Shown here: one piece after another, positions 30,378-62,175 of the stretch
Numbering within the stretch: position 1 is the stretch's first letter
Layout: each line of letters begins with the position of its first letter
IMG/VR virus record: IMGVR_UViG_3300048861_000081
Span: 3,689 to 67,688 of that record
Strand: one strand, 5' to 3'
Source of the DNA: a virus
Lineage: Duplodnaviria > Caudoviricetes
Length of the DNA: 64,000 bases
The notes under the pieces: generated by a model
Database searches by the model: none
Told to the model about the DNA's origin: nothing
Seen by the model: the letters and a program-made list of their open reading frames with translations, nothing else
Program-made: the position numbers and the translations under genes

Positions 30378-31964
30378 ATGAAGAAAGAAATTGAGGATCA
30401 AGGGGTTAAGGTCTTCCTCGCGAACCTGACAGAGCTAACGCCGAACCCGAAAAACGCGCGCACCCATCCGGTTTCGCAAGTCCAGCAAATCAAGGCGTCG
30501 ATCCGCGAGTTCGGATGGACAAACCCGATGCTTGCGGACATGGATGACGCCGGAATGATCGTCGCCGGCCATGGTCGGCGGCTCGCCGCGATCGAGCTCT
30601 ACGACGCCGGCGAAACGATCCGGCTGCCGAACGGTCGCGCCCTTCCGCCTTGGACGGTGCCGGCGATCGACTGCGCCGGATGGACGGCAAAGCAACGGCG
30701 CGCTTATACGCTTGCCGACAACCGCTTAGCCGAAACGTCCGAATGGGATGAAGAACTCTTGAGCGCGGAACTTGTCTTCCTGCGCGAAGAGAAATTTGAC
30801 CTTGGCCTGACCGGCTTCGACGACAAGTTCCTCGACAAGCTGATCGACGCGGCTGCCGGCGGCGACGATCCGGCGGCGGCGCGGGCGACCTTGGCCGAGC
30901 GCTTCGGCATCCCGCCGTTTTCTGTCCTTAACGCCCGCGAGGGATGGTGGCAGGATCGCAAGCGCGCCTGGATCGGCCTCGGCATCCAGTCCGAACTTGG
31001 TCGCGGCGAAGGTTTGAACGACGCGGCGCCGAGCGGTTCAGCCCGGCCGTCGACGACCTATTCAGTCGACAAGGCGCGCGGCGACGGCAAAGGCCGCGCC
31101 GCCAACGGCAAGCGCAAGGCGGCGACGTTCGGCCAGGATCTTATGCGCGGCGAGCATGTCGTCGGCGATCGCGACGCCATCCCGAAGGGGTTGCTTTACG
31201 GCGAGATGCAGAACTTCGACGGGGCGGGCCGTCAGATAACGGGGACATCGATCTTCGACCCGGTCGTCTGCGAACTTGCTTATCGCTGGTTTTGCCCGCC
31301 GGGCGGGACGATCCTTGATCCGTTCGCCGGCGGTTCGGTTCGCGGTATCGTCGCGTCAGTCCTTGGCCGTCAGTATGTCGGCTGCGACCTTCGCGCCGAG
31401 CAGGTTGACGCAAACCGGGTTCAGGGTAGAAAGATTTGTTCCGACCCACGGCCGGTTTGGATTACCGGCGACAGCCGGGCCATTGCCGACCATGCGGCCG
31501 GAACCGAAGCGGACTTCGTCTTTAGCTGCCCGCCATACGCGGACCTCGAAATTTACAGCGACGACCCGGCGGACCTGTCGACGCTTGCCTATTCCGAATT
31601 TCGGAAGGCGTATTTCGAGATCATCGCCGCTACGTGCGGCATGCTGAAGGAAGACCGCTTCGCCTGTTTCGTCGTCGGCGAGGTGCGCGACAAGCGTGGC
31701 AACTATTACGGCTTTGTGCCGGATACGATCGCCGCCTTCGACGCGGCCGGGCTGCGCTTCTATAATGAAGCGATCCTCGTTACAGCCGCCGGGTCGTTGC
31801 CGATCCGAGCCGGGAAGCAGTTCGGGGCAACCCGGAAGCTCGGAAAAACTCACCAGAACATACTGGTATTCGTGAAGGGCGACGCCAAGCGCGCGACCGA
31901 AGCGATCGGCGAAGTAGAATTCGGCGAGATCGTCGCCGATGAAAACGAAGGAGAAAACGCATGA
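30378..31964 (+). CDS. ParB-like domain fused to amino-DNA methyltransferase
   Basis: LTPNPKNARTH...FGWTNPML...IVAGHGRRLAA (ParB-like); LDPFAGGS, GCDL, FSCPPY. Confidence 0.85.
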   Translation: MKKEIEDQGVKVFLANLTELTPNPKNARTHPVSQVQQIKASIREFGWTNPMLADMDDAGMIVAGHGRRLAAIELYDAGETIRLPNGRALPPWTVPAIDCAGWTAKQRRAYTLADNRLAETSEWDEELLSAELVFLREEKFDLGLTGFDDKFLDKLIDAAAGGDDPAAARATLAERFGIPPFSVLNAREGWWQDRKRAWIGLGIQSELGRGEGLNDAAPSGSARPSTTYSVDKARGDGKGRAANGKRKAATFGQDLMRGEHVVGDRDAIPKGLLYGEMQNFDGAGRQITGTSIFDPVVCELAYRWFCPPGGTILDPFAGGSVRGIVASVLGRQYVGCDLRAEQVDANRVQGRKICSDPRPVWITGDSRAIADHAAGTEADFVFSCPPYADLEIYSDDPADLSTLAYSEFRKAYFEIIAATCGMLKEDRFACFVVGEVRDKRGNYYGFVPDTIAAFDAAGLRFYNEAILVTAAGSLPIRAGKQFGATRKLGKTHQNILVFVKGDAKRATEAIGEVEFGEIVADENEGENA

Positions 31965-46044: not shown

Positions 46045-49000
46045 ATGGCTTTCGAACACAAGAGCGGCCTGCCGGACGCGTATGACCGCGCGGATGGTCA
46101 CAACGACGTGCAGGGTGTCGTCTTCTATGGCGATGAACGGTTCTTGCAGTCGGCAGAACTGAACGAGGCGCAAACGATCGAGCGTCAGCGCGCCCGCCGC
46201 GTCTCGCGCCTCATCGCCAAAGATGGGGATCGGGTAGAAGGCGCCGCGATCGTTCTGATTGATGCGGATGCCGGGGAGTTTGCGACGACCGCTGGCCGCG
46301 TCTACTTCGACGGGGACATCTTCCCGATCGATCAGGCGGTTCTCGACGGCGTTCCCATGACGGGCAGGGTCGTCGTCGGGGCGACTGTTACCCGGACGTG
46401 GGTGACGTCGGACGATGACCCGACATTGCTCGGACTTGTCGAAGGATCGCTTGCCGAAGGCGAGCCGGGCGCGGCACGCGAGAAAGTGACATTGTCGTGG
46501 GCTGTTGAAGCTGATCAGGACGAATTCGTTCCGATCTACATCATCCAGGACGGCACCGTCATTGATCAATCGCCGCCGCCGGCCTTGTCCGGCATCAATC
46601 AGGCGATATCGATCTACGACAGCGACGCGAACGGCAACTATATCGTTCGCGGCTGCCGCGTTACCGCGCTTGGCAAGACAGACGGTAATCAGGTCTTTTC
46701 GATCGAGGAAGGCACCGCAAATATCAATGGCTTCAAGCGCGTCCGGCAGGCCGCGCTACGCCATGAAGAGCTTGAAGATTGGGATACCGAGGAAGTCCCC
46801 GGCGAACCGCATACCTACCCAGGCGGCGCAAGCGCGACGATCCCGACGAATTTTTCGCCGATTTCCGCGATCAACTCGGTCCTTGTGACAAAGCAGGTCA
46901 CAGAGAATGTCACGCGCGGAGCGGTTGCCGGAACCGCTGATCTTCTGTCGAACAACAGCGTTACAGCGATCCTTTTGGTCAAGCAGGGCGCGACGACGTA
47001 CGCCGTTACGACTGACTACATCAAAACGGGCGATAGCGTTGACTGGTCGCCCGGCGGGACGGAACCGGCGACGGGGTCGACCTATCAGGTCACCTATCAG
47101 TACCTTGCATCTGTTACCCCTGATGCGGCCGACGATACTTCGATTACCGTCTCTGGCGGCGTTTCGGGTACGACGGTCATCTTCGGGTACGACTACAAGC
47201 TGCCGCGCATCGATCTGCTTTGTCTCGATCAAGATGGCTTGCCAGCCTACGTCAAGGGGAATTCCGCAAGGAAGAACCCGCTTCAACCGCTGCCGCCGGC
47301 GAACTTGCTGAAGCTCTGCTACATCACCAATAGTTGGCTGACGACGCCGGGCGTAGTGAACGACGGAACGCGGTCTGTCCCATATGATCAGGCTTGGCGC
47401 TTCTATAATCGCGTCATAGACCTCGATCGTTTGATGCAGATCGAGCGTATCAATCGCGGCATTGACAGCCGGGAACCGGTTGCGAAACTCGGCTCGTTTG
47501 CCGACCCCCTGACGACGGATGAATTCCGCGACCTTGGGGCGGCACAAACGGCGTCGGTTGGTCTCGGTACGATCGAGCTCGCTATTGCGCCGACATTCTT
47601 CGAGGCGACACTGAACTCGCCCGTCATGCTCGACTATACGGAAGAAATCATCATCCAGCAGCTTCTTGAAACGGGCTGCACGAAGATCAACCCGTATCAG
47701 AACTTCACGCCTTTGCCGGCCGGGTTGAAGATGAGCCCGGCGGCAGATTTTTGGACGGTCCAGCAGACAGTATGGGCTAGCCCTCAGACGATCGAGTTCA
47801 ATCGCGGCATTCGTCGCGACAATGGCCCGCTCGTCGTTTCGACCGATAGCACTGAAGTTGTCGATCAACGGCAACAACAAGCTGACTTCCTTCGCCAGAT
47901 CACCGTCGCTTATACGATCCAAGGGTTCGGCGCCGGCGAGATCCTGAAGACGCTGACGTTCGACGGCGTCAACATCAAACCGCCGGGCACGACGACAGCG
48001 GACGGATCGGGGAACATCGCCGGGTCTTTCGTGATCCCTGCGAACATCCCGGCCGGAACGAAGGAAATGTTCGCCGAGGGTATGGGCGGGTCGTTCGCCT
48101 CCGCGCCATTTGTGGGGCAGGGGACAATTACGATCACAACGATGCGGACGGTTACGACCATCGACAGATGGACGAACCCGCCGACTGTCGTTCAGCAACC
48201 CGTTCAAACGCCTAAGCCGCCAACGCCTCAATCAGGGGATGGGGGCCACGCGGGAAATCATGGCGGCGGTCGTGCTGACCCGGTTGCACAGACGTTCACT
48301 GTGTCGGAAGCGCGGCAACTGGTCGGCGTTGACGTGAAGCTTTGCGCGATCGGCAACACGGCAAACAACATCCAGGTCGATCAGGTCTCCGTTCAGACCG
48401 GGTTCCCAACGACGGATGTTGAAGCGTCCGCTTTCGTCCCGATGGCCGGGAAAACGGTAGGATGGATTTCCGCCCGGTATAATTTCCCGGTTCTGACGAC
48501 ACCGGATCGAGAAGAGGCTTTCGTCGTCAAGACGAACGATGCAAACCATTCGGTTTCATTCGCTCGCCTTGGCGCATTCGACACGACGCTGCAAAAGTTC
48601 GTTACCTCGCAGCCTTATACGGTCGGCGTTATGCTGACGTCGTCGAATGCAAGCACATGGACGCCGAGCCAAGACGACGACCTGACCTTCCGTCTCGTTG
48701 CCGCCAAGTTCGGCCCCCTGACGAAGACCGTCCCGCTCGGAAGCTTCGATCTTGTCCACTGTAGCGACCTTCAGGTCCGCGCCGTCGTCGATCTGCCGTC
48801 GACGGATTGCAGCGTCATTTTCGAGATCGTCCGGGCCGATGCATCGGTTCTGCGCGTACAGCCCTATCAGGTTGTGCAGCTAACCGAGTACATCACGGAA
48901 ACGGTTCAGCTTCGCGCCATCCTTACAGGGACCGAGAAGCTATCCCCGATCCTTTACAACCCGGTCGTATTGATCGCTGGCGAGATCGCCACTGAAGGGA

Positions 49001-49287
49001 CGTACATTTGCCGGGCGTTCGACCTGGGTACTGACGTCGACCTGACGTCCTACTTCAAAGCATCGCTTCCGTTCGGTTCGACGGTCACCGCCGAGTACGA
49101 CAAGGCCGACGACACATGGCTAAGCCTGCCGCTGATATCGACCGAAGTCCTGTCCGATCCCGCATGGGTCGAGCAGAAACGGTCAGCGACCGGCATCAAC
49201 GCAACTGAGGGGCGTATCAAGATCACGATCACCGGCGGGCCTTCTGCCCGGCCGCGCATCGGCGACCTTGGCGCGGCTATCATGTAG
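46045..49287 (+). CDS. DUF4815-like large baseplate/tail protein
   Basis: FLQSAELNEAQ N-terminus; YKLPRIDLLCLD; FADPLTTDEFRD; position. Confidence 0.65.
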   Translation: MAFEHKSGLPDAYDRADGHNDVQGVVFYGDERFLQSAELNEAQTIERQRARRVSRLIAKDGDRVEGAAIVLIDADAGEFATTAGRVYFDGDIFPIDQAVLDGVPMTGRVVVGATVTRTWVTSDDDPTLLGLVEGSLAEGEPGAAREKVTLSWAVEADQDEFVPIYIIQDGTVIDQSPPPALSGINQAISIYDSDANGNYIVRGCRVTALGKTDGNQVFSIEEGTANINGFKRVRQAALRHEELEDWDTEEVPGEPHTYPGGASATIPTNFSPISAINSVLVTKQVTENVTRGAVAGTADLLSNNSVTAILLVKQGATTYAVTTDYIKTGDSVDWSPGGTEPATGSTYQVTYQYLASVTPDAADDTSITVSGGVSGTTVIFGYDYKLPRIDLLCLDQDGLPAYVKGNSARKNPLQPLPPANLLKLCYITNSWLTTPGVVNDGTRSVPYDQAWRFYNRVIDLDRLMQIERINRGIDSREPVAKLGSFADPLTTDEFRDLGAAQTASVGLGTIELAIAPTFFEATLNSPVMLDYTEEIIIQQLLETGCTKINPYQNFTPLPAGLKMSPAADFWTVQQTVWASPQTIEFNRGIRRDNGPLVVSTDSTEVVDQRQQQADFLRQITVAYTIQGFGAGEILKTLTFDGVNIKPPGTTTADGSGNIAGSFVIPANIPAGTKEMFAEGMGGSFASAPFVGQGTITITTMRTVTTIDRWTNPPTVVQQPVQTPKPPTPQSGDGGHAGNHGGGRADPVAQTFTVSEARQLVGVDVKLCAIGNTANNIQVDQVSVQTGFPTTDVEASAFVPMAGKTVGWISARYNFPVLTTPDREEAFVVKTNDANHSVSFARLGAFDTTLQKFVTSQPYTVGVMLTSSNASTWTPSQDDDLTFRLVAAKFGPLTKTVPLGSFDLVHCSDLQVRAVVDLPSTDCSVIFEIVRADASVLRVQPYQVVQLTEYITETVQLRAILTGTEKLSPILYNPVVLIAGEIATEGTYICRAFDLGTDVDLTSYFKASLPFGSTVTAEYDKADDTWLSLPLISTEVLSDPAWVEQKRSATGINATEGRIKITITGGPSARPRIGDLGAAIM

Positions 49288-55787: not shown

Positions 55788-56804
55788 ATGCAGGCGATCT
55801 ATTCTGTCGTCGTGGCAGGGCAAGATATTTCGACGGCCCTGAACCCGATCTTGCTCAACCTGTCTGTATCGCTGAAGTCTGGCGGCTCTAGCGATACTGC
55901 GTCGCTTACGATCGACGACACTGGCGGCCGGGTCATTTTGCCGGGCAAGGGCGACCCGATCACTATCAAGCTTGGATGGCAAGATAAGGGGATCGGGACC
56001 GTCTTCGCCGGGACGGTCGATGAAGTTAACGCCGAGGGCGGCCGGTCAGGTCGGACGCTGTCAATCAGCGCCAAGGGCGTAGATACGAACGGCAAGGCGA
56101 AGCAGGGTCAGCGTCGGCATTTCGATAACGCCACCGTCAAGGACGCGCTTTCCGCCGCCGGGCAGACGGCAGGGGTTGACGTCAAGGTGGACCCGTCCTT
56201 CGCGTCCATCACGCGCCCCTACATCGCCCTCGACGATGAAAGCTTTCTCGCCTTCGGTGAACGGCTGGCGCGCGAACTTGGCGGAACCTTCAAGATCGTC
56301 GGGACGACGGCGGTCCTTGCAAAGCGGAATGGGGGCGTAGCGCCGTCAGGCGCCGCCCTGCCGACTATAACGGCGGCATGGGGCGACAACCTCCATGAAT
56401 ATTCGATCAAGCCGCTGCTAGGCCGCCCGGTCGAGAAGACGACCCTTAGCCGCTGGTACGATAGCAAGTCGGCGGCTTGGAAATCAAAGACCGCCGAAAC
56501 GGGGACAGACGGCGCGACGACGACGAAGCCGTCGATCTTTACCGAGGCTGATGAAGACCGCGCGACCGAGCAATCGTCTTCAGACGCGGTCGAAAGCGAC
56601 CGCAAGAGCGGCGAAGGCAGCGCCACGATCGAAGGCGACATCAACGCACAGCCGGAAGGGAACTGCATCGTCTCGAATTGCCGGGACGGCGTCGATGGAA
56701 CCTACCGGATTGACAGCGTCGATCACTCCTACTCGCGCAGCGGCTTCACGACATCCCTTCAACTGCGGCAGCCGAAAGGCAGTGCCGGCAAGGACAGTAG
56801 ATAG
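55788..56804 (+). CDS. Baseplate hub / late control gene D-like protein
   Basis: SDTASLTIDD, LGWQDKG, DESFLAFGERLARELG, GTYRIDSVDHSYSRSGFTT. Confidence 0.9.
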   Translation: MQAIYSVVVAGQDISTALNPILLNLSVSLKSGGSSDTASLTIDDTGGRVILPGKGDPITIKLGWQDKGIGTVFAGTVDEVNAEGGRSGRTLSISAKGVDTNGKAKQGQRRHFDNATVKDALSAAGQTAGVDVKVDPSFASITRPYIALDDESFLAFGERLARELGGTFKIVGTTAVLAKRNGGVAPSGAALPTITAAWGDNLHEYSIKPLLGRPVEKTTLSRWYDSKSAAWKSKTAETGTDGATTTKPSIFTEADEDRATEQSSSDAVESDRKSGEGSATIEGDINAQPEGNCIVSNCRDGVDGTYRIDSVDHSYSRSGFTTSLQLRQPKGSAGKDSR

Positions 56805-56819
56805 AAAAGGACTTTTCAG

Positions 56820-59366
56820 ATGTCATTTGGTTTTGGAGTTGGCATACAGCGGCTCGGCAGCGTTGGTGTCGATACGCAGAGCGCGCTTCTTGCCCTCCCA
56901 TCGCCGGGGGCCGCGTTGCGCCCGACCGGCTTCGTCTTTGCCGATCCTGACCCCACGAAGAATGGCGTCTATACTTGGACTGGATCGTCCTGGCAGCGCG
57001 ATCGCGGCCTTCCCGAGCAAATCGCCACCCTGGACGTTACTGGCGGCGATGAAAACGACATCATCGCTACCGTTCAGGCTGGCGTTGATCTCGCGCAGAT
57101 ATCGCTTGTTCGGATCACGCCGGCAGGGACCAATACCGGTCCGGTATCAATCAATACTAAGCCGGTTCTCGATGCGGCGGGTAACGCCCTTGACGCTGAC
57201 CAGTTCGTCGGCGGTCAGACCTACATTCTCGTCGCCAACGCCGACAACTATCAATCTATAATCGGCTCGTTTGCTTCGGCGGCGCAGGGGGCAAAGGCCG
57301 ACAGCGCATTGCAGCAGACTTCTCCGATCTTCGTCCCGTCTTATCTTGTTCCCGCTATTCCCGTTGCGCCTCCGATCATCAAGGCGAACGGGGATGAATG
57401 GTCTATTTTTGCTTTCAAAGGCGGAGAGACAGAACGAGCAAAAGATACCTCGATTGCTGACTATCAGGAGACTTTCTCGACCGCTGTGGCGACAGGGGAA
57501 AAGATTAAAGTTCCTCGTTGGGAGTTTCCTGTCCGGTCGCTCAGCCTCACCGGAGAAATCAACGCCGGCGTCAACGTCCAGGCGGATACCCCGATCGACG
57601 TTGTTTGTGCTTCGGGCGCCAAGTTCATCGCCGGCGAATGTTTCGTCGGCCTCGTGTCGTCAATGATCCGTTTTGTTGGCGATACCACTCCGACCGACAG
57701 CACGAACAGCATTCTGACGCCGTTCAGTTGGCGTGGCGGCATCATGTCCGGCGAAGCGCTGACGGCAGCGCATGGGGCAGGCTCGGGCTTTGGCGTCGGT
57801 CTGATGGATGTTAGCCAGTACTTCAATCCGCTGATCGAAGGCGTTCTGTTCGACGCCGGCGTAACGACGCCGGCATTAAATTCGATCGGGTGCGGCTACA
57901 TTGATACTGGCCTCGGGATGCATGGCAACATCGGGTCGCAAGTTATCGGGAACGGGTTCCGTGGTCTCTTCGATGCCGGCGTTTATGACAACGGTATCCG
58001 GCAGGTTGTTACCCTTGGCACCAACCCCCTTAATACAACTAGCGGATCACCTATCGTAGGAGTTCACCAGCCAGCACATGGGCTTACAACAGGCGAACGC
58101 CCCGGCATTGCCGGCACGTCGGCACTTCCGATCATTGCGCTGGGCGGCCTTTCGCTGTTCGGCGAATACGCGGTGACTGTCGTTGACCCTGACAACTATA
58201 CGATCACGGCAGCCGCGAACGCTACATCCACGACGTCAGGCGGGACCGGCGCCCGCGTAACAATGCCGATCAGCCAGACCGAGTACATGTCGATCGGCGG
58301 CGAGCAATCCGTCTACCAGCGAAATTACTTCCTTCGGGTCGGGAACACCTGTCTTGCTGTGAAGCGCAACCTTCGGCATGTCGATATCAGCCATAACAGG
58401 TTCCGCGAAACATCCAACGCGGTCGCCCTAGCCCCGATCGACGTTGCCATGGCGGAAGGGCACAAAGCTCTTATCACGCACAACACGCTGACGCGCATCA
58501 CCGGGCACGGCCTTCGGGTCATTGGCGGCGGCATGTTCGTTACCATCGCCGACAATCACATCGAGAACTTCGGCAAGCAGCTTTTCGACGAAACGGTCTA
58601 CACCAATTTTTCGACCGATTTCCCGCCAACGGCGATCTGGCTTCAAAGCGTCCTCGGTGCGAACGTTCATGACAACACGATCGCTCAAACGGGCAAATAT
58701 AAGGACTTGACTGGCATCATCGCTGGCGAAGAACCTTGCGCTATCCGCCTATCCAAAAACCCGAACATGATCGATGGTTCGAAGAACTGCAAGGTTCACG
58801 ATAACAACATCATCGATGTGCCCCGCCCGTTCCTCGATCAGACAGGCAATAGCGCAAACCGTTGGGAGAACAATCCCTATAGTGGCAATTCTGTCCCGGC
58901 GATTATCACGCCAACTGATAGCATTCTGATTGAACCGGACAGCAAAGGGTCAGGAACGTGCCTTCTCAAAGGAACGGTCGGCGACTTTAGCAGCTATGAC
59001 TTGCACACCTACCATTGGTATAAGCATGGCGATGTGGTCACCCTGGCAGTCTACATTGACTTGGCGGCGACAACGGGCGGATCTGGAAACATCACGATCG
59101 GTGGGTACACCCCATTGATAGGCGGGGCTCCCCCTGCAGCTCGGACAACTGCGCCTGCGTCCCAGGCGCTCGGGTTCGCTGTAAAAACCTCAGGTCAGCT
59201 AACGCACTCTGCCGCTGGCTTCACCGAGTTCCAGGCCGACATTTCAGCGGGCGGGAATATCATCAATCTGTTCGAGGTCGGGAACAACGTGATCCTTCCT
59301 TTGACAGAAGCGAGGTTCGGCGGTGGGACGCGTATGGCCATTACAGGCTCATATATCGCGAACTAG
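56820..59366 (+). CDS. Tailspike / putative polysaccharide depolymerase with right-handed beta-helix
   Basis: Phage anchor-like N-terminus; repeated I.hN.f/I.DN.I beta-helix turns (ISHNRF, ITHNTL, IADNHI, VHDNTI, VHDNNI). Confidence 0.75.
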   Translation: MSFGFGVGIQRLGSVGVDTQSALLALPSPGAALRPTGFVFADPDPTKNGVYTWTGSSWQRDRGLPEQIATLDVTGGDENDIIATVQAGVDLAQISLVRITPAGTNTGPVSINTKPVLDAAGNALDADQFVGGQTYILVANADNYQSIIGSFASAAQGAKADSALQQTSPIFVPSYLVPAIPVAPPIIKANGDEWSIFAFKGGETERAKDTSIADYQETFSTAVATGEKIKVPRWEFPVRSLSLTGEINAGVNVQADTPIDVVCASGAKFIAGECFVGLVSSMIRFVGDTTPTDSTNSILTPFSWRGGIMSGEALTAAHGAGSGFGVGLMDVSQYFNPLIEGVLFDAGVTTPALNSIGCGYIDTGLGMHGNIGSQVIGNGFRGLFDAGVYDNGIRQVVTLGTNPLNTTSGSPIVGVHQPAHGLTTGERPGIAGTSALPIIALGGLSLFGEYAVTVVDPDNYTITAAANATSTTSGGTGARVTMPISQTEYMSIGGEQSVYQRNYFLRVGNTCLAVKRNLRHVDISHNRFRETSNAVALAPIDVAMAEGHKALITHNTLTRITGHGLRVIGGGMFVTIADNHIENFGKQLFDETVYTNFSTDFPPTAIWLQSVLGANVHDNTIAQTGKYKDLTGIIAGEEPCAIRLSKNPNMIDGSKNCKVHDNNIIDVPRPFLDQTGNSANRWENNPYSGNSVPAIITPTDSILIEPDSKGSGTCLLKGTVGDFSSYDLHTYHWYKHGDVVTLAVYIDLAATTGGSGNITIGGYTPLIGGAPPAARTTAPASQALGFAVKTSGQLTHSAAGFTEFQADISAGGNIINLFEVGNNVILPLTEARFGGGTRMAITGSYIAN

Positions 59367-59394
59367 CGCGCCGATGCGGGATGAAGCGCTATAG

Positions 59395-59425
59395 GTCGAG
59401 AGGAAGGCTTTGCTTTCCTCTCGAC
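59395..59425. terminator. Strong hairpin between convergent tailspike and moron
   Basis: GTCGAGAGGAAGGC-TTT-GCTTTCCTCTCGAC. Confidence 0.65.
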
Positions 59426-59449
59426 GTCGGCGGCGTTCGATAGTTGTTG

Positions 59450-60346
59450 TTATGCCAGGCTGAACTTGACCCTGACGGATTGAATTGCATCATTCGACCC
59501 AAATACACAGGGGATCGGCTGCTGAACGTACGTTTCCCCGGCCACTTTTTTTCTTCCCATTTCGCGAAGAACTAGCGCCGAGTTATGCCGGGGGAGGACG
59601 TCATAGGTAACGTCTGGCCAAGTAGCGTCGATCGCTCTCGGGCTGTCAAGAATAGACAGGTCGGCTCCTGCTGCAACCAAGAGAGACGGGAACAAAAACT
59701 CGAAAAAGTACCTGTTGAAACCGAGCGAATGCAGGCTTGAAGTGATCAGTTCTTCGGGCATTTGCTGAAGTGCAGAAGAGAGAAACGCCGCAGATACCGA
59801 GAACATCGTATATGGGACGGTGAAGCAGACCTGAGGGCCGGATATGCCGCACATGTCTAGCAAACGATGGAACTGCTTAATGTGGACCATGGTGTTCGGC
59901 ATAGATGCGTTTCGAGCATAGATAGCATTCCGATTTATTCGAAAGGCTTCCTCGATGCGGTCTATATTCAGGCACCCGTCGATCTGATCGTTTGCAATGA
60001 ATTCGAAGTCCTTGAAGGCATGGCTTGATCCCTTGCAGTGACCGAACATGGCAACGTCGTAGCCCGGTAGACGTAATTGGGCGTTCCAAAGCCCGAGCTG
60101 GTATCCTGCTGCGTCCGAACGGCTATTATTCTCAGGCGCGACATGCTCAAGCGCGACGACATTCGGAATGTTTTCCAGCGCCGCCGCAAAAGTCGGATCG
60201 CAGCCAGGGTTGACGGAAACGACCTTATCGATCGAACCGAACCGATCGCTTAACAGCGACAGGTAATAATTGCGCCAAATGGCAGTATCCGGTTTGTCGG
60301 GGGCGACCCAAGCAGCGAAAATCAAAAGTGGTTTGAAGGACAGCAT
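59450..60346 (-). CDS. Putative glycan-synthesis/modifying protein (RgpF/glycosyltransferase-like)
   Basis: SDAAGYQLGL...YDVAMFGHCKGSSH...RYFFEFLFP resembles rhamnan-synthesis-F-like motifs; lower GC. Confidence 0.45.
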   Translation of the reverse strand: MLSFKPLLIFAAWVAPDKPDTAIWRNYYLSLLSDRFGSIDKVVSVNPGCDPTFAAALENIPNVVALEHVAPENNSRSDAAGYQLGLWNAQLRLPGYDVAMFGHCKGSSHAFKDFEFIANDQIDGCLNIDRIEEAFRINRNAIYARNASMPNTMVHIKQFHRLLDMCGISGPQVCFTVPYTMFSVSAAFLSSALQQMPEELITSSLHSLGFNRYFFEFLFPSLLVAAGADLSILDSPRAIDATWPDVTYDVLPRHNSALVLREMGRKKVAGETYVQQPIPCVFGSNDAIQSVRVKFSLA

Positions 60347-60369
60347 GAATTTTCCCAATCGGTTTTTTG

Positions 60370-61179
60370 TTAGCCTTCGAGAAGGCGTCTTCGCATAAAT
60401 CTCTCGATGGCGAGCCCTAGAAACAAGCAAGTCATACCGCAAGCCAGAATGTAGGGCTTGTCGAGCAACTTATCGGAATAGCCTTCGTAATAGGCGGTTC
60501 GCATCCATTCGACACACTGGAATACCGGACTGAAGGACATCGGGTAAGAGATCTGTGCGGGTAGCGATGTAACGGGGATCATCGTCCCTGACGATGCGTA
60601 GAAGAGGATCAGCATCAGCGCCCAAATCGTGTTTGCCAAGGGAAACATCACGATCAGAATTCCGACTAGCGTGCCGACGCCAACCGACAAAAAGATTGTC
60701 GCGAGATAGGCCGCGACCGCTGTGTCCAAATCGATTGGGAATGGATCGTCGCCCATTGCCCAAAGTGCGAATAGCATCAGCGTTAGGGACATGAACGCGC
60801 CAATGATTTCCAGCGCAGCGCGACCGAACATGACATCGAGCATCTTCACAACCGGGAAATTTATCATCGGGCGATTGATGACGATCGAAAACCCCATGAA
60901 GCGGGTTATGTACATGAATGCAACTGTCGGGATTAGCCCGGTCGCGATGTAGACGGGGAGGCTTGTCCCGTATGCGACGACCGGATGAATGACGGCGTGA
61001 ATGACGATGATGATCGTCATGTGCACGAAAGGCCAAAGGGGCACCATGACAAAGCCGAGGCCATGATTGAAAAACCGCGTCCGCATGTCGCGGAGCATAA
61101 CAGCTTTCATGACATTGAATTTGGATTGTATCGCCTCGATCATCGGCCGCCGGGGCCGGCGTCGGTCTGTTCTGGCCAT
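60370..61179 (-). CDS. ABC-2 capsular polysaccharide export permease, KpsM/RkpT-like (no ATPase partner)
   Basis: AVMLRDMRTRFFNHGLGFVMVPLWP, ~6 hydrophobic segments, VKMLDVMFGRA, FYASG, PVFQCVEWMRTAYY. Confidence 0.85.
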   Translation of the reverse strand: MARTDRRRPRRPMIEAIQSKFNVMKAVMLRDMRTRFFNHGLGFVMVPLWPFVHMTIIIVIHAVIHPVVAYGTSLPVYIATGLIPTVAFMYITRFMGFSIVINRPMINFPVVKMLDVMFGRAALEIIGAFMSLTLMLFALWAMGDDPFPIDLDTAVAAYLATIFLSVGVGTLVGILIVMFPLANTIWALMLILFYASSGTMIPVTSLPAQISYPMSFSPVFQCVEWMRTAYYEGYSDKLLDKPYILACGMTCLFLGLAIERFMRRRLLEG

Positions 61180-61288
61180 GCTGAATATCCCAAAATAAAA
61201 ATCGATTTGTTTATATCGCCGATCCACTAGCGGGACAGTGATAAGCCGAAATTGCGATGAGTTGCAACGGCAGTAGAAGCGTTTTCGC

Positions 61289-61319
61289 AAGGCCCGCGTG
61301 AGTGGGCCTTTTTTCTTTT
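61289..61319 (+). terminator. Intrinsic terminator immediately upstream of the lysis cassette
   Basis: AAGGCCCGC-GTGA-GTGGGCCTT followed by T-rich tract. Confidence 0.8.
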
Positions 61320-61339
61320 CCAACTTTTAGGGGGAAGTC

Positions 61340-61690
61340 ATGAATACTCTTCCGGCCGCATTGCGGCGGAAGATCAAGGAGACGTTTGTCTCCGCGATCT
61401 CGGTCTTCGGCTTAGAGCCGGTCGAAGGCTTCAACCACATTTTTGCGCGCGCTTGGAGCATTCGGCTCGCGATCCTTGCCGGCTTCCTTTCAATGCTTGA
61501 AGTCGGCCTTCCGTTGATCGCGGACATCCGGCCATTCCCGCCGCTTCTATACGCTGTCCTGATGATGGCTATCACCTGGGCCGCCTGTATCGCGCGTCTT
61601 GTCGCGCAGCCGGCCATTCAATCGAAAATCGAACAAACGTCGCAGCCGGCCGCAACGGACCCGGCGCGTCAGCCATGGGGAGATGCATGA
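61340..61690 (+). CDS. Putative holin (two TM segments)
   Basis: WSIRLAILAGFLSMLEV...LLYAVLMMAITWAACIARLVAQP; directly before endolysin. Confidence 0.75.
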   Translation: MNTLPAALRRKIKETFVSAISVFGLEPVEGFNHIFARAWSIRLAILAGFLSMLEVGLPLIADIRPFPPLLYAVLMMAITWAACIARLVAQPAIQSKIEQTSQPAATDPARQPWGDA

Positions 61691-62175
61691 TCAGCCGGAT
61701 CAGACAGAACGGAAAAGCAACCGCCGTGGGCGTTGCGTTGATCGCGATGGTCGGCAGCTTCGAAGGCGTTAAGACAATCGCCTATCGCGATCCGGTCGGC
61801 GTCCCGACCATCTGCTTCGGCGAAACGCGCGGCGTCAAGATGGGCGACCGCGCCACGCTGGCCGAATGTCGGAACATGCTCGCCGATCGACTTGTCGAAT
61901 TCGAGACGGGTATGCGGAAATGCCTTAAGGCGCCGGACAGCATTCCGGACGGGCCTTATCAAAGTTTCCTGTCGTTCTCCTACAACGCCGGGACTTCCGC
62001 ATTCTGCTCGTCGACTATGGCGCGTAGGGTGAATGACGGCGACCTTCGCGGCGCTTGCAATGAGTTCCCGAAGTGGACAAAAGCGAGCGGTCCTTTCGGG
62101 ACAAAGGTCACCTTGCCGGGTCTTGTAAAGCGTCGCAAGGAAGAGCAGGCGCTTTGCCTGACGGGGGTCAAATGA
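61687..62175 (+). CDS. Endolysin, GH24 phage lysozyme with SAR-like N-terminus
   Basis: E-X8-D-X5-T triad (FEGVKTIAYRDPVGVPT), SFSYNAG, GLVKRRKEE; weakly hydrophobic ATAVGVALIAMVG. Confidence 0.93.
   Translation: MISRIRQNGKATAVGVALIAMVGSFEGVKTIAYRDPVGVPTICFGETRGVKMGDRATLAECRNMLADRLVEFETGMRKCLKAPDSIPDGPYQSFLSFSYNAGTSAFCSSTMARRVNDGDLRGACNEFPKWTKASGPFGTKVTLPGLVKRRKEEQALCLTGVK

Follow-up and report, generated by a model that had tools for sequence, protein, structure and literature searches.

A pair of genes in a tailed-phage genome (Duplodnaviria; Caudoviricetes) is the subject of this study, and the window analysed is a stretch of 64,000 nucleotides corresponding to bases 3689-67688 of the 67,688-bp IMG/VR virus record IMGVR_UViG_3300048861_000081. 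Positions given below are those of the window unless another sequence is named. The pair consists of two co-oriented minus-strand open reading frames (ORFs) at 59450-61179, antisense between a tail protein gene and the holin and endolysin genes. Gene 1 (60370-61179, minus strand; ATG at 61179, stop at 60370) encodes a 269-amino acid capsule-export permease of the KpsM family, belonging to the ABC-2 (type-5) permeases of ATP-binding cassette (ABC) transporters, while gene 2 (59450-60346, minus strand; ATG at 60346, stop at 59450) encodes a soluble 298-amino acid protein that is a putative glycosyltransferase with a GT-A fold and a remote likeness to RgpF. The gap between them, read directly from the sequence, is 23 bp (60347-60369, minus strand) and operon-like. 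An earlier note on this DNA had described a two-gene antisense operon with a 23-bp gap in the interval between tailspike and holin, and both ORFs are indeed found there. The start giving 269 amino acids was preferred to the 257-amino acid database call for gene 1 because the 12 N-terminal residues are conserved in homologues.

The permease

Gene 1 matches the NCBIfam KpsM model NF050053 (E 1e-23) with 84.7 bits, far under the 300-bit cut-off for equivalogs, which ranks it as a homologue short of an equivalog; it also matches the NCBIfam VexB model (E 7e-10). A profile of gene 1 and its relatives aligns over its full length with the KpsM chain 8tsh_C in the Protein Data Bank (PDB; E 1e-27, residues 19-267 against 22-270), and KpsM was the sole PDB match, with none to Wzm or TarG at E<=0.01. 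The hydropathy profile of the protein fits a permease of six helices whose N-terminal interface-helix region is basic. Among 76 positions that are at least 90% conserved across 53 permease relatives, 66 (87%) are retained in all three members of the phage clade described below, and most of the ten changes are conservative; changes specific to this clade are A187 and, after transmembrane helix 5 (TM5), F201I/V202P. In the solved KpsM, Arg35, Arg89, Arg94, and Trp45 are essential and the electropositive canyon also makes contacts via Arg187 (PMC11041684); an HMMER alignment places R35 and R93 of gene 1 at the canyon residues Arg35 and Arg94. Gene 1 appears to encode a functional permease from a divergent subfamily and not a decayed one.

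No gene for an ABC ATPase (PF00005), a Poly_export/KpsD protein (PF02563), or a KpsE-like protein was found in the whole 67,688-bp phage record. An intact KpsM-type permease of about 269 amino acids without KpsT, KpsE, and KpsD had been proposed for the window; the homology is full length, and the absence holds for the entire genome. Compared with KpsM of the KpsMT-KpsE-KpsD group-2 exporter (8TSH; PMC11041684), gene 1 is alike in its full-length homology and in its counterparts of Arg35 and Arg94, and its bacterial relatives likewise cluster with KpsT and KpsE homologues. It differs in being encoded by a phage without KpsT, KpsE, and KpsD, in lying below the equivalog cut-off, in the positions of Arg89, Trp45, and Arg187, and in belonging to a subfamily that is often unlinked to kpsT, even in bacteria. 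Its likeness to rhizobial RkpT is by analogy only, without sequence comparison.

The putative glycosyltransferase

Gene 2 has no match in Pfam, NCBIfam, or PHROG. An exhaustive phmmer search returned 39 relatives, of which about 17 are full length (29-35% identity), and the family alignment contains three conserved motifs: SDAxGYQ, YDxxxFxHxKG, and RxFFExxFPS. The AlphaFold (AF2) model built with this alignment (predicted local distance difference test 94.4, predicted template modelling score 0.92) is similar to mannosylglycerate synthase, TarS, ArnC, WrtF, and hyaluronan synthases (VIA Z 12-12.7), and in Foldseek it matches the metal-independent C2GnT-L (E 6e-5), with GT14 enzymes at the top of the list. 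Gene 2 is thereby predicted to have a Rossmann-like GT-A glycosyltransferase fold. In the family alignment the DxD metal-binding motif is absent and H103-x-K105-G106 is found after strand 4 instead, an arrangement that appears to resemble the metal-independent GT14 enzymes.

The name RgpF-like, which the earlier note had given to gene 2, is supported as probable remote homology but not as Pfam membership. The Pfam model of RgpF (PF05045) does not match gene 2 (P0002) and only faintly matches two of its relatives (E 0.076 and 0.049). The top structural match in BFVD is annotated "Rhamnan synthesis protein F" (E 8.7e-6, template modelling score 0.53), and in the ESM Atlas gene 2 scores 0.60-0.62 on the same scale against RgpF clusters, the nearest clusters being viral. 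Alignment by hhalign with RgpF domains from neighbouring bacterial loci gave E 1.9e-4 over 192 columns with a probability of only 47.8%, and brought the motifs into register: SDAxGYQ with NxGRD, FxHxKGxS with HTKxSxH, and RxFFE with HAxER. Gene 2 and RgpF appear alike in a GT-A fold lacking DxD and in motifs that align in register, and RgpF enzymes work with ABC-2 exporters; gene 2 is a single domain of 298 amino acids, whereas the bacterial neighbours are multidomain proteins of 743-1204 amino acids.

Scans of metagenomes and IMG/VR yielded no close relative of gene 2, and its family was not found among 401 sampled Rhizobiales genomes. Distant relatives (21-29% identity; L062-L073) are found in long co-oriented arrays of soluble 200-280-amino acid proteins; the viral records among these are mostly fragments of 11-30 kb, with several of 54-174 kb. 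No permease is found near these distant relatives, which are uninformative on the pairing.

The cassette in the phage genome

The gene pair has a GC content of 0.52-0.53, compared with 0.595 for the genome and 0.61-0.63 for the neighbouring late genes. To its left, a strong hairpin at 59395-59425 (both strands) separates gene 2 from the convergent tailspike gene. It folds with -23.2 kcal/mol (z -4.6) as minus strand and with -40.2 kcal/mol (z -3.8) as plus strand and, although it has no U-run, probably terminates transcription in both directions. To its right, between the starts of gene 1 and the holin gene, a canonical intrinsic terminator at 61289-61320 (plus strand) has a 9-bp GC stem and a U-run (-17 kcal/mol, z -3.4). 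The region upstream of gene 1 where a promoter would be expected (61180-61288, minus strand) has no match to the sigma-70 consensus. The terminator at 61289-61320 lies about 20 bp upstream of the holin start, leaving no space for a promoter; either the lysis genes may need antitermination, or this terminator may stop antisense read-through across the cassette.

A related phage fragment (L074), with 66-71% amino acid identity in the tape measure and tail proteins, lacks both genes. The anatomy of the pair is that of a moron, as the earlier note had it, with an antisense orientation, a deviant GC content, hairpins on both sides, and absence from this relative. The tailspike is common to the two phages only over the N-terminal 148 amino acids (L074:10658-11362, a 234-amino acid protein), and the divergence beyond residue 148 has the appearance of classic swapping of a receptor-binding module next to the moron. 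Together with the GC profile, this comparison is partly in line with tailspike and moron forming a single cassette.

The tail fibre or tailspike-like protein itself (56820-59366, plus strand; 848 amino acids) has a conserved N-terminal anchor and a variable β-helix C-terminal part. Over residues 1-149 it shares 46% identity with the tail-fibre protein of a Microcystis phage, and the match to the Pfam Beta_helix model is weak, just under the cut-off (E 2.4e-5). No sequence match was found in the PDB; the protein is a candidate receptor-binding protein of the tailspike type. A gpD-like tail protein is encoded just before it (55788-56804, plus strand), and the right border of the slot is formed by the holin and endolysin genes (61340-62175, plus strand), with the holin at 61340-61690 (phrog_1356, E 7e-7; DUF7940) and the endolysin at 61675-62175 (phrog_7, E 1.6e-50). 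Other late genes on the plus strand nearby encode terminase, portal, a capsid-protease fusion, sheath, tube, and tape measure. Elsewhere in the window, a 1080-amino acid DUF4815 protein (46045-49287, plus strand; phrog_877, E 2e-255) is encoded among tail-fibre genes upstream of the sheath gene, and a 528-amino acid protein in which a ParB-like nuclease domain is fused to a DNA methyltransferase (30378-31964, plus strand) is encoded just upstream of the terminase region.

The locus had also been labelled a prophage, but the record is a complete phage genome and not an integrated one: it has direct terminal repeats, CheckV gives a completeness of 100%, and its 127-bp terminal overlap indicates a circular assembly. 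The early genes include those for a Dda-like helicase, a RecE-like exonuclease, a primase-helicase, a ligase, and methyltransferases. Of integrase-like genes the phage yielded only one, a large serine recombinase whose domain lies in a 576-amino acid open frame just outside the window (G000:C1:1272-1691, minus strand); no tyrosine integrase was detected. Because the serine recombinase is present the phage is probably temperate, and an integrated prophage of Rhizobium sp. SYY.PMSO (below) carries kpsM in the homologous slot. The carrier is probably a temperate Rhizobiaceae myovirus, with the host judged from the relatives of the permease only.

Relatives of the pair and the same slot in other phages

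More than 300 relatives of the permease were found, nearly all of them in Rhizobiaceae at 50-57% identity and two at 80%. One of these two (P0006) is encoded on the same 15.3-kb contig as the only close relative of gene 2 (P0003, 78% identity); P0005, also among the closest relatives, is on a contig of 18.4 kb. In the tree, gene 1 and its two 80% relatives group together with full support. Their clade has a long branch and no more than 57% identity to any bacterial copy, and it nests in a group of 24 copies, some viral and some bacterial and "ATPase-less". When only branches with a support of 95% or more in the Shimodaira-Hasegawa-like approximate likelihood ratio test (SH-aLRT) are counted, the label must switch between viral and bacterial at least five times. 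Neither protein has a homologue in 50,697 GenBank phage records or a PHROG family.

Eight further IMG/VR records carry a permease of the gene 1 type. One of these (L001) is a complete 45-kb phage genome with direct terminal repeats, internal-virion-protein genes, a methyltransferase, and no ATPase, in which a GT61 glycosyltransferase gene overlaps the start of kpsM. In two proviruses (L009, L007) and in the chromosome of SYY.PMSO (L017), kpsM directly adjoins tail-fibre or spike genes (phrog_5616, E 5e-150; phrog_31). The SYY.PMSO region is a real prophage: its capsid gene shares 60% identity with the one in phage PAJU2 and its endolysin 61% with endolysins of Rhizobium phages. Its gene order is tail fibre, spike-like, antisense kpsM, RgpF-domain (743 amino acids), a 289-amino acid protein, GT61-like, and lysis genes. 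This prophage uses the same slot as the phage of the window, in an unrelated phage. A search of other prophages, which the earlier note had called for, thus found KpsM beside a tail fibre or spike in a second complete phage, in proviruses, and in the SYY.PMSO prophage, and the slot is used in at least three verified phages. With the pair conserved at 78-80% identity on another contig and KpsM beside tail-fibre genes in other phages, the case that would have refuted the earlier note, a decaying host fragment not conserved in phages, is not what is seen; the two intact ORFs, the 66 of 76 positions kept in the permease, and the lack of the cassette in a related phage also speak against decay.

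Bacterial context of the permease subfamily

The subfamily is patchily distributed, with matches in 12 of 121 sampled Rhizobiaceae genomes, a tally that includes one unpublished genome (G490), and strong matches in five. A KpsT-like ATPase was found within 8 kb of kpsM in only 11-12 of 47 bacterial loci. Where the genes are clustered the order is KpsE, KpsT, KpsE', a 366-amino acid protein, and KpsM, and the best PDB matches of these host KpsT and KpsE homologues are 8tsi_A (E 4e-61) and 8tsh_E (E 1.5e-38). In the core clusters of Rhizobiaceae (L006, L036, L075, L076), two paralogous KpsE-like genes, about 30% identical, flank kpsT. The other kpsM copies have as neighbours mostly glycosyltransferases (GT1, GT2, WsaF, RgpF), pyruvyl- and methyltransferases, and transposases, and RgpF-domain proteins adjoin subfamily kpsM in 6 of 55 loci. 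The possibility that bacterial "orphan" kpsM genes are mostly prophage-borne was rejected, as only one tail fibre, one endolysin, and one integrase occur among 127 neighbour proteins. One contig binned as "Candidatus Melainabacteria" (L045/L046), whose KpsM is identical to the Rhizobium tropici PTD1 protein, is probably mis-binned or contaminating.

The 8-kb neighbourhood does not reach the KpsT that one genome has at a distance of 12.6 kb. In the five genomes examined, a single KpsT orthologue is present in each; kpsM and kpsT are 12.6 kb apart in Ensifer sesbaniae, across a variable glycosyltransferase region, 1.45 Mb apart in SYY.PMSO, and 223 kb apart or on separate contigs in the other three. 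Within 10 kb of the KpsE-KpsT-KpsE core of SYY.PMSO (L075, G010:C1:921000-940999) there is neither a kpsM nor another multi-helix permease, and the prophage kpsM is the sole match to the subfamily in that genome at E<=1e-10. Since kpsM is commonly far from a single kpsT in Rhizobiaceae, the apparent paradox of an orphan permease is weakened, and working in trans looks normal for the subfamily.

Interpretation

Polymers of the ABC-dependent pathway are assembled in the cytoplasm, the only place where they can be modified, before KpsMT, KpsE, and KpsD export them. With modification limited to the cytoplasm, a soluble glycosyltransferase and a permease make a logical minimal kit. Gene content and gene order suggest that the pair is a surface-polysaccharide conversion cassette using host KpsT and KpsE, a reading to which we give about an even chance. 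Such a cassette would act on an ABC-transporter-dependent surface polysaccharide of the host, of the K-antigen or capsule type. The lipid-linked polymer would be modified in the cytoplasm by the soluble RgpF-like GT-A enzyme, and the product would be exported by a complex of the phage KpsM with the host KpsT ATPase and with KpsE and KpsD. The outcome would be a changed or newly exported surface glycan, with substrate, timing of expression, and phenotype to be taken as equally conjectural, and an altered receptor for glycan-specific tailspikes could lead to superinfection exclusion, possibly with side effects on host ecology.

Several observations weigh against a cassette of this kind. Two residues essential in the solved KpsM are replaced by methionine in gene 1 (M89 for Arg89 and M45 for Trp45 in the HMMER alignment), both positions being non-conserved in the host relatives too, with an invariant tryptophan, W49, one helical turn past M45; the position of Arg187 is alanine in the phage clade and glutamine in the host relatives. 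KpsMT of the E. coli type has limited polymer specificity (PMC11041684), which makes it puzzling why a phage would need its own permease. Gene 2 is a putative glycosyltransferase without donor or acceptor assignment, and a minus-strand scan of 59200-61500 found no sigma-70-like consensus promoter. The assignment of the host to Rhizobiaceae is drawn only from the relatives of KpsM, and the contigs of the closest relatives (P0003/P0006; P0005) may or may not come from phages.

If the proposed pairing with host KpsT is carried further, KpsM in this Rhizobiaceae lineage could be a mobile subunit that determines the type and joins, in trans, a KpsT-KpsE core conserved in the host. Phages would then spread "capsule-type cassettes", each a glycosyltransferase with a matched permease, beside their tailspikes, and some lysogens, such as SYY.PMSO, would depend on a prophage permease for capsule export. 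This extension is offered tentatively and is more probably wrong than right.

An orphan permease without an ATPase, adjoining a receptor-binding protein and carrying the clade-specific changes A187 and F201I/V202P, could also be a dominant-negative poison that joins host KpsT/KpsE or host KpsM in dead complexes, so that export stops and the receptor for capsule-dependent phages is lost. We consider this unlikely, since 87% of the family-conserved positions are kept, including two essential canyon arginines, and a poison would have no need of the co-conserved glycosyltransferase partner; other phages, moreover, pair KpsM with further glycosyltransferases, and in SYY.PMSO no subfamily copy was found outside the prophage, which leaves a poison without a host KpsM as its target. 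A similarly low probability is given to action on a different glycan with a borrowed host ATPase, for example an ABC-dependent O-antigen, a rhamnan-like polymer, or another glycolipid. The 84.7 bits of the permease against a cut-off of 300 and the three of five canyon residues unlike those of the solved KpsM are in keeping with such a target, as is the reported membership of RgpF enzymes in ABC-dependent rhamnan pathways (PMC9574508). However, the PDB search matched KpsM alone, with neither Wzm nor TarG at E<=0.01, and the clustered bacterial relatives sit with homologues of KpsT and KpsE (8tsi_A, 8tsh_E).

The remaining two explanations are both improbable. The pair could be a neutral passenger, a recently captured piece of a host polysaccharide locus without a role for the phage, as its GC content is low, as in host glycan loci, its bacterial relatives are mostly in host loci rich in transposases, and it is absent from the related phage L074. 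Recent capture is difficult to reconcile with the long, fully supported branch of the phage clade and its identity of at most 57% to bacterial copies, or with the absence of the gene 2 family from the sampled Rhizobiales and the viral nature of its nearest Atlas clusters, and lack of a role with two intact ORFs, a second copy of the pair at 78-80% identity, and the recurrence of the slot in at least three phages. A role in the lytic cycle, in which a late change of surface glycan would keep progeny off debris or infected siblings, would suit a cassette that sits between late genes and has no independent promoter that could be found, but its antisense orientation and the terminators on either side shield it from transcription of the late genes, the phage has a serine recombinase, and the SYY.PMSO copy is in an integrated prophage.

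Relation to known conversion systems

Read as a conversion cassette, the pair has its closest counterparts in gtrABC and oac of Shigella and Salmonella phages, which likewise are accessory genes of temperate phages near tailspike or integrase and alter a receptor polysaccharide. The O-acetyltransferase of prophage CUS-3 in E. coli K1 is a capsule-modifying conversion gene. Pseudomonas phage D3 converts serotype by Iap and Wzy-beta (PMC4815439), and likewise replaces a component of host assembly with a phage version. All of these systems either have Wzy-dependent O-antigens as periplasmic targets or do no more than acetylate the capsule, and none supplies an ABC-transporter permease; in the cassette of the window, by contrast, modification must be cytoplasmic and the phage supplies a subunit of the exporter. 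In rhizobia, rkp products are implicated in the adsorption of phage 16-3, a link raised by the earlier note and used here as an analogy only. The literature searched contained no report of a phage-encoded capsule ABC permease and nothing relevant on rkpT or phage 16-3.

While phage serotype conversion is well known for Wzy-dependent O-antigens, a subunit of an ABC-type capsule exporter carried on a phage was not found in GenBank phages, in PHROGs, or in the literature searched, and the cassette, so read, is a new form of phage surface-glycan conversion. If the phage permease pairs with host KpsT, subunits of ABC exporters would be exchangeable in trans between virus and host, and phages would have a route to switch or restore ABC-dependent capsules. 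The same pairing, if true, would offer a handle on how the diversity of rhizobial K-antigens affects phage sensitivity and, possibly, legume symbiosis.

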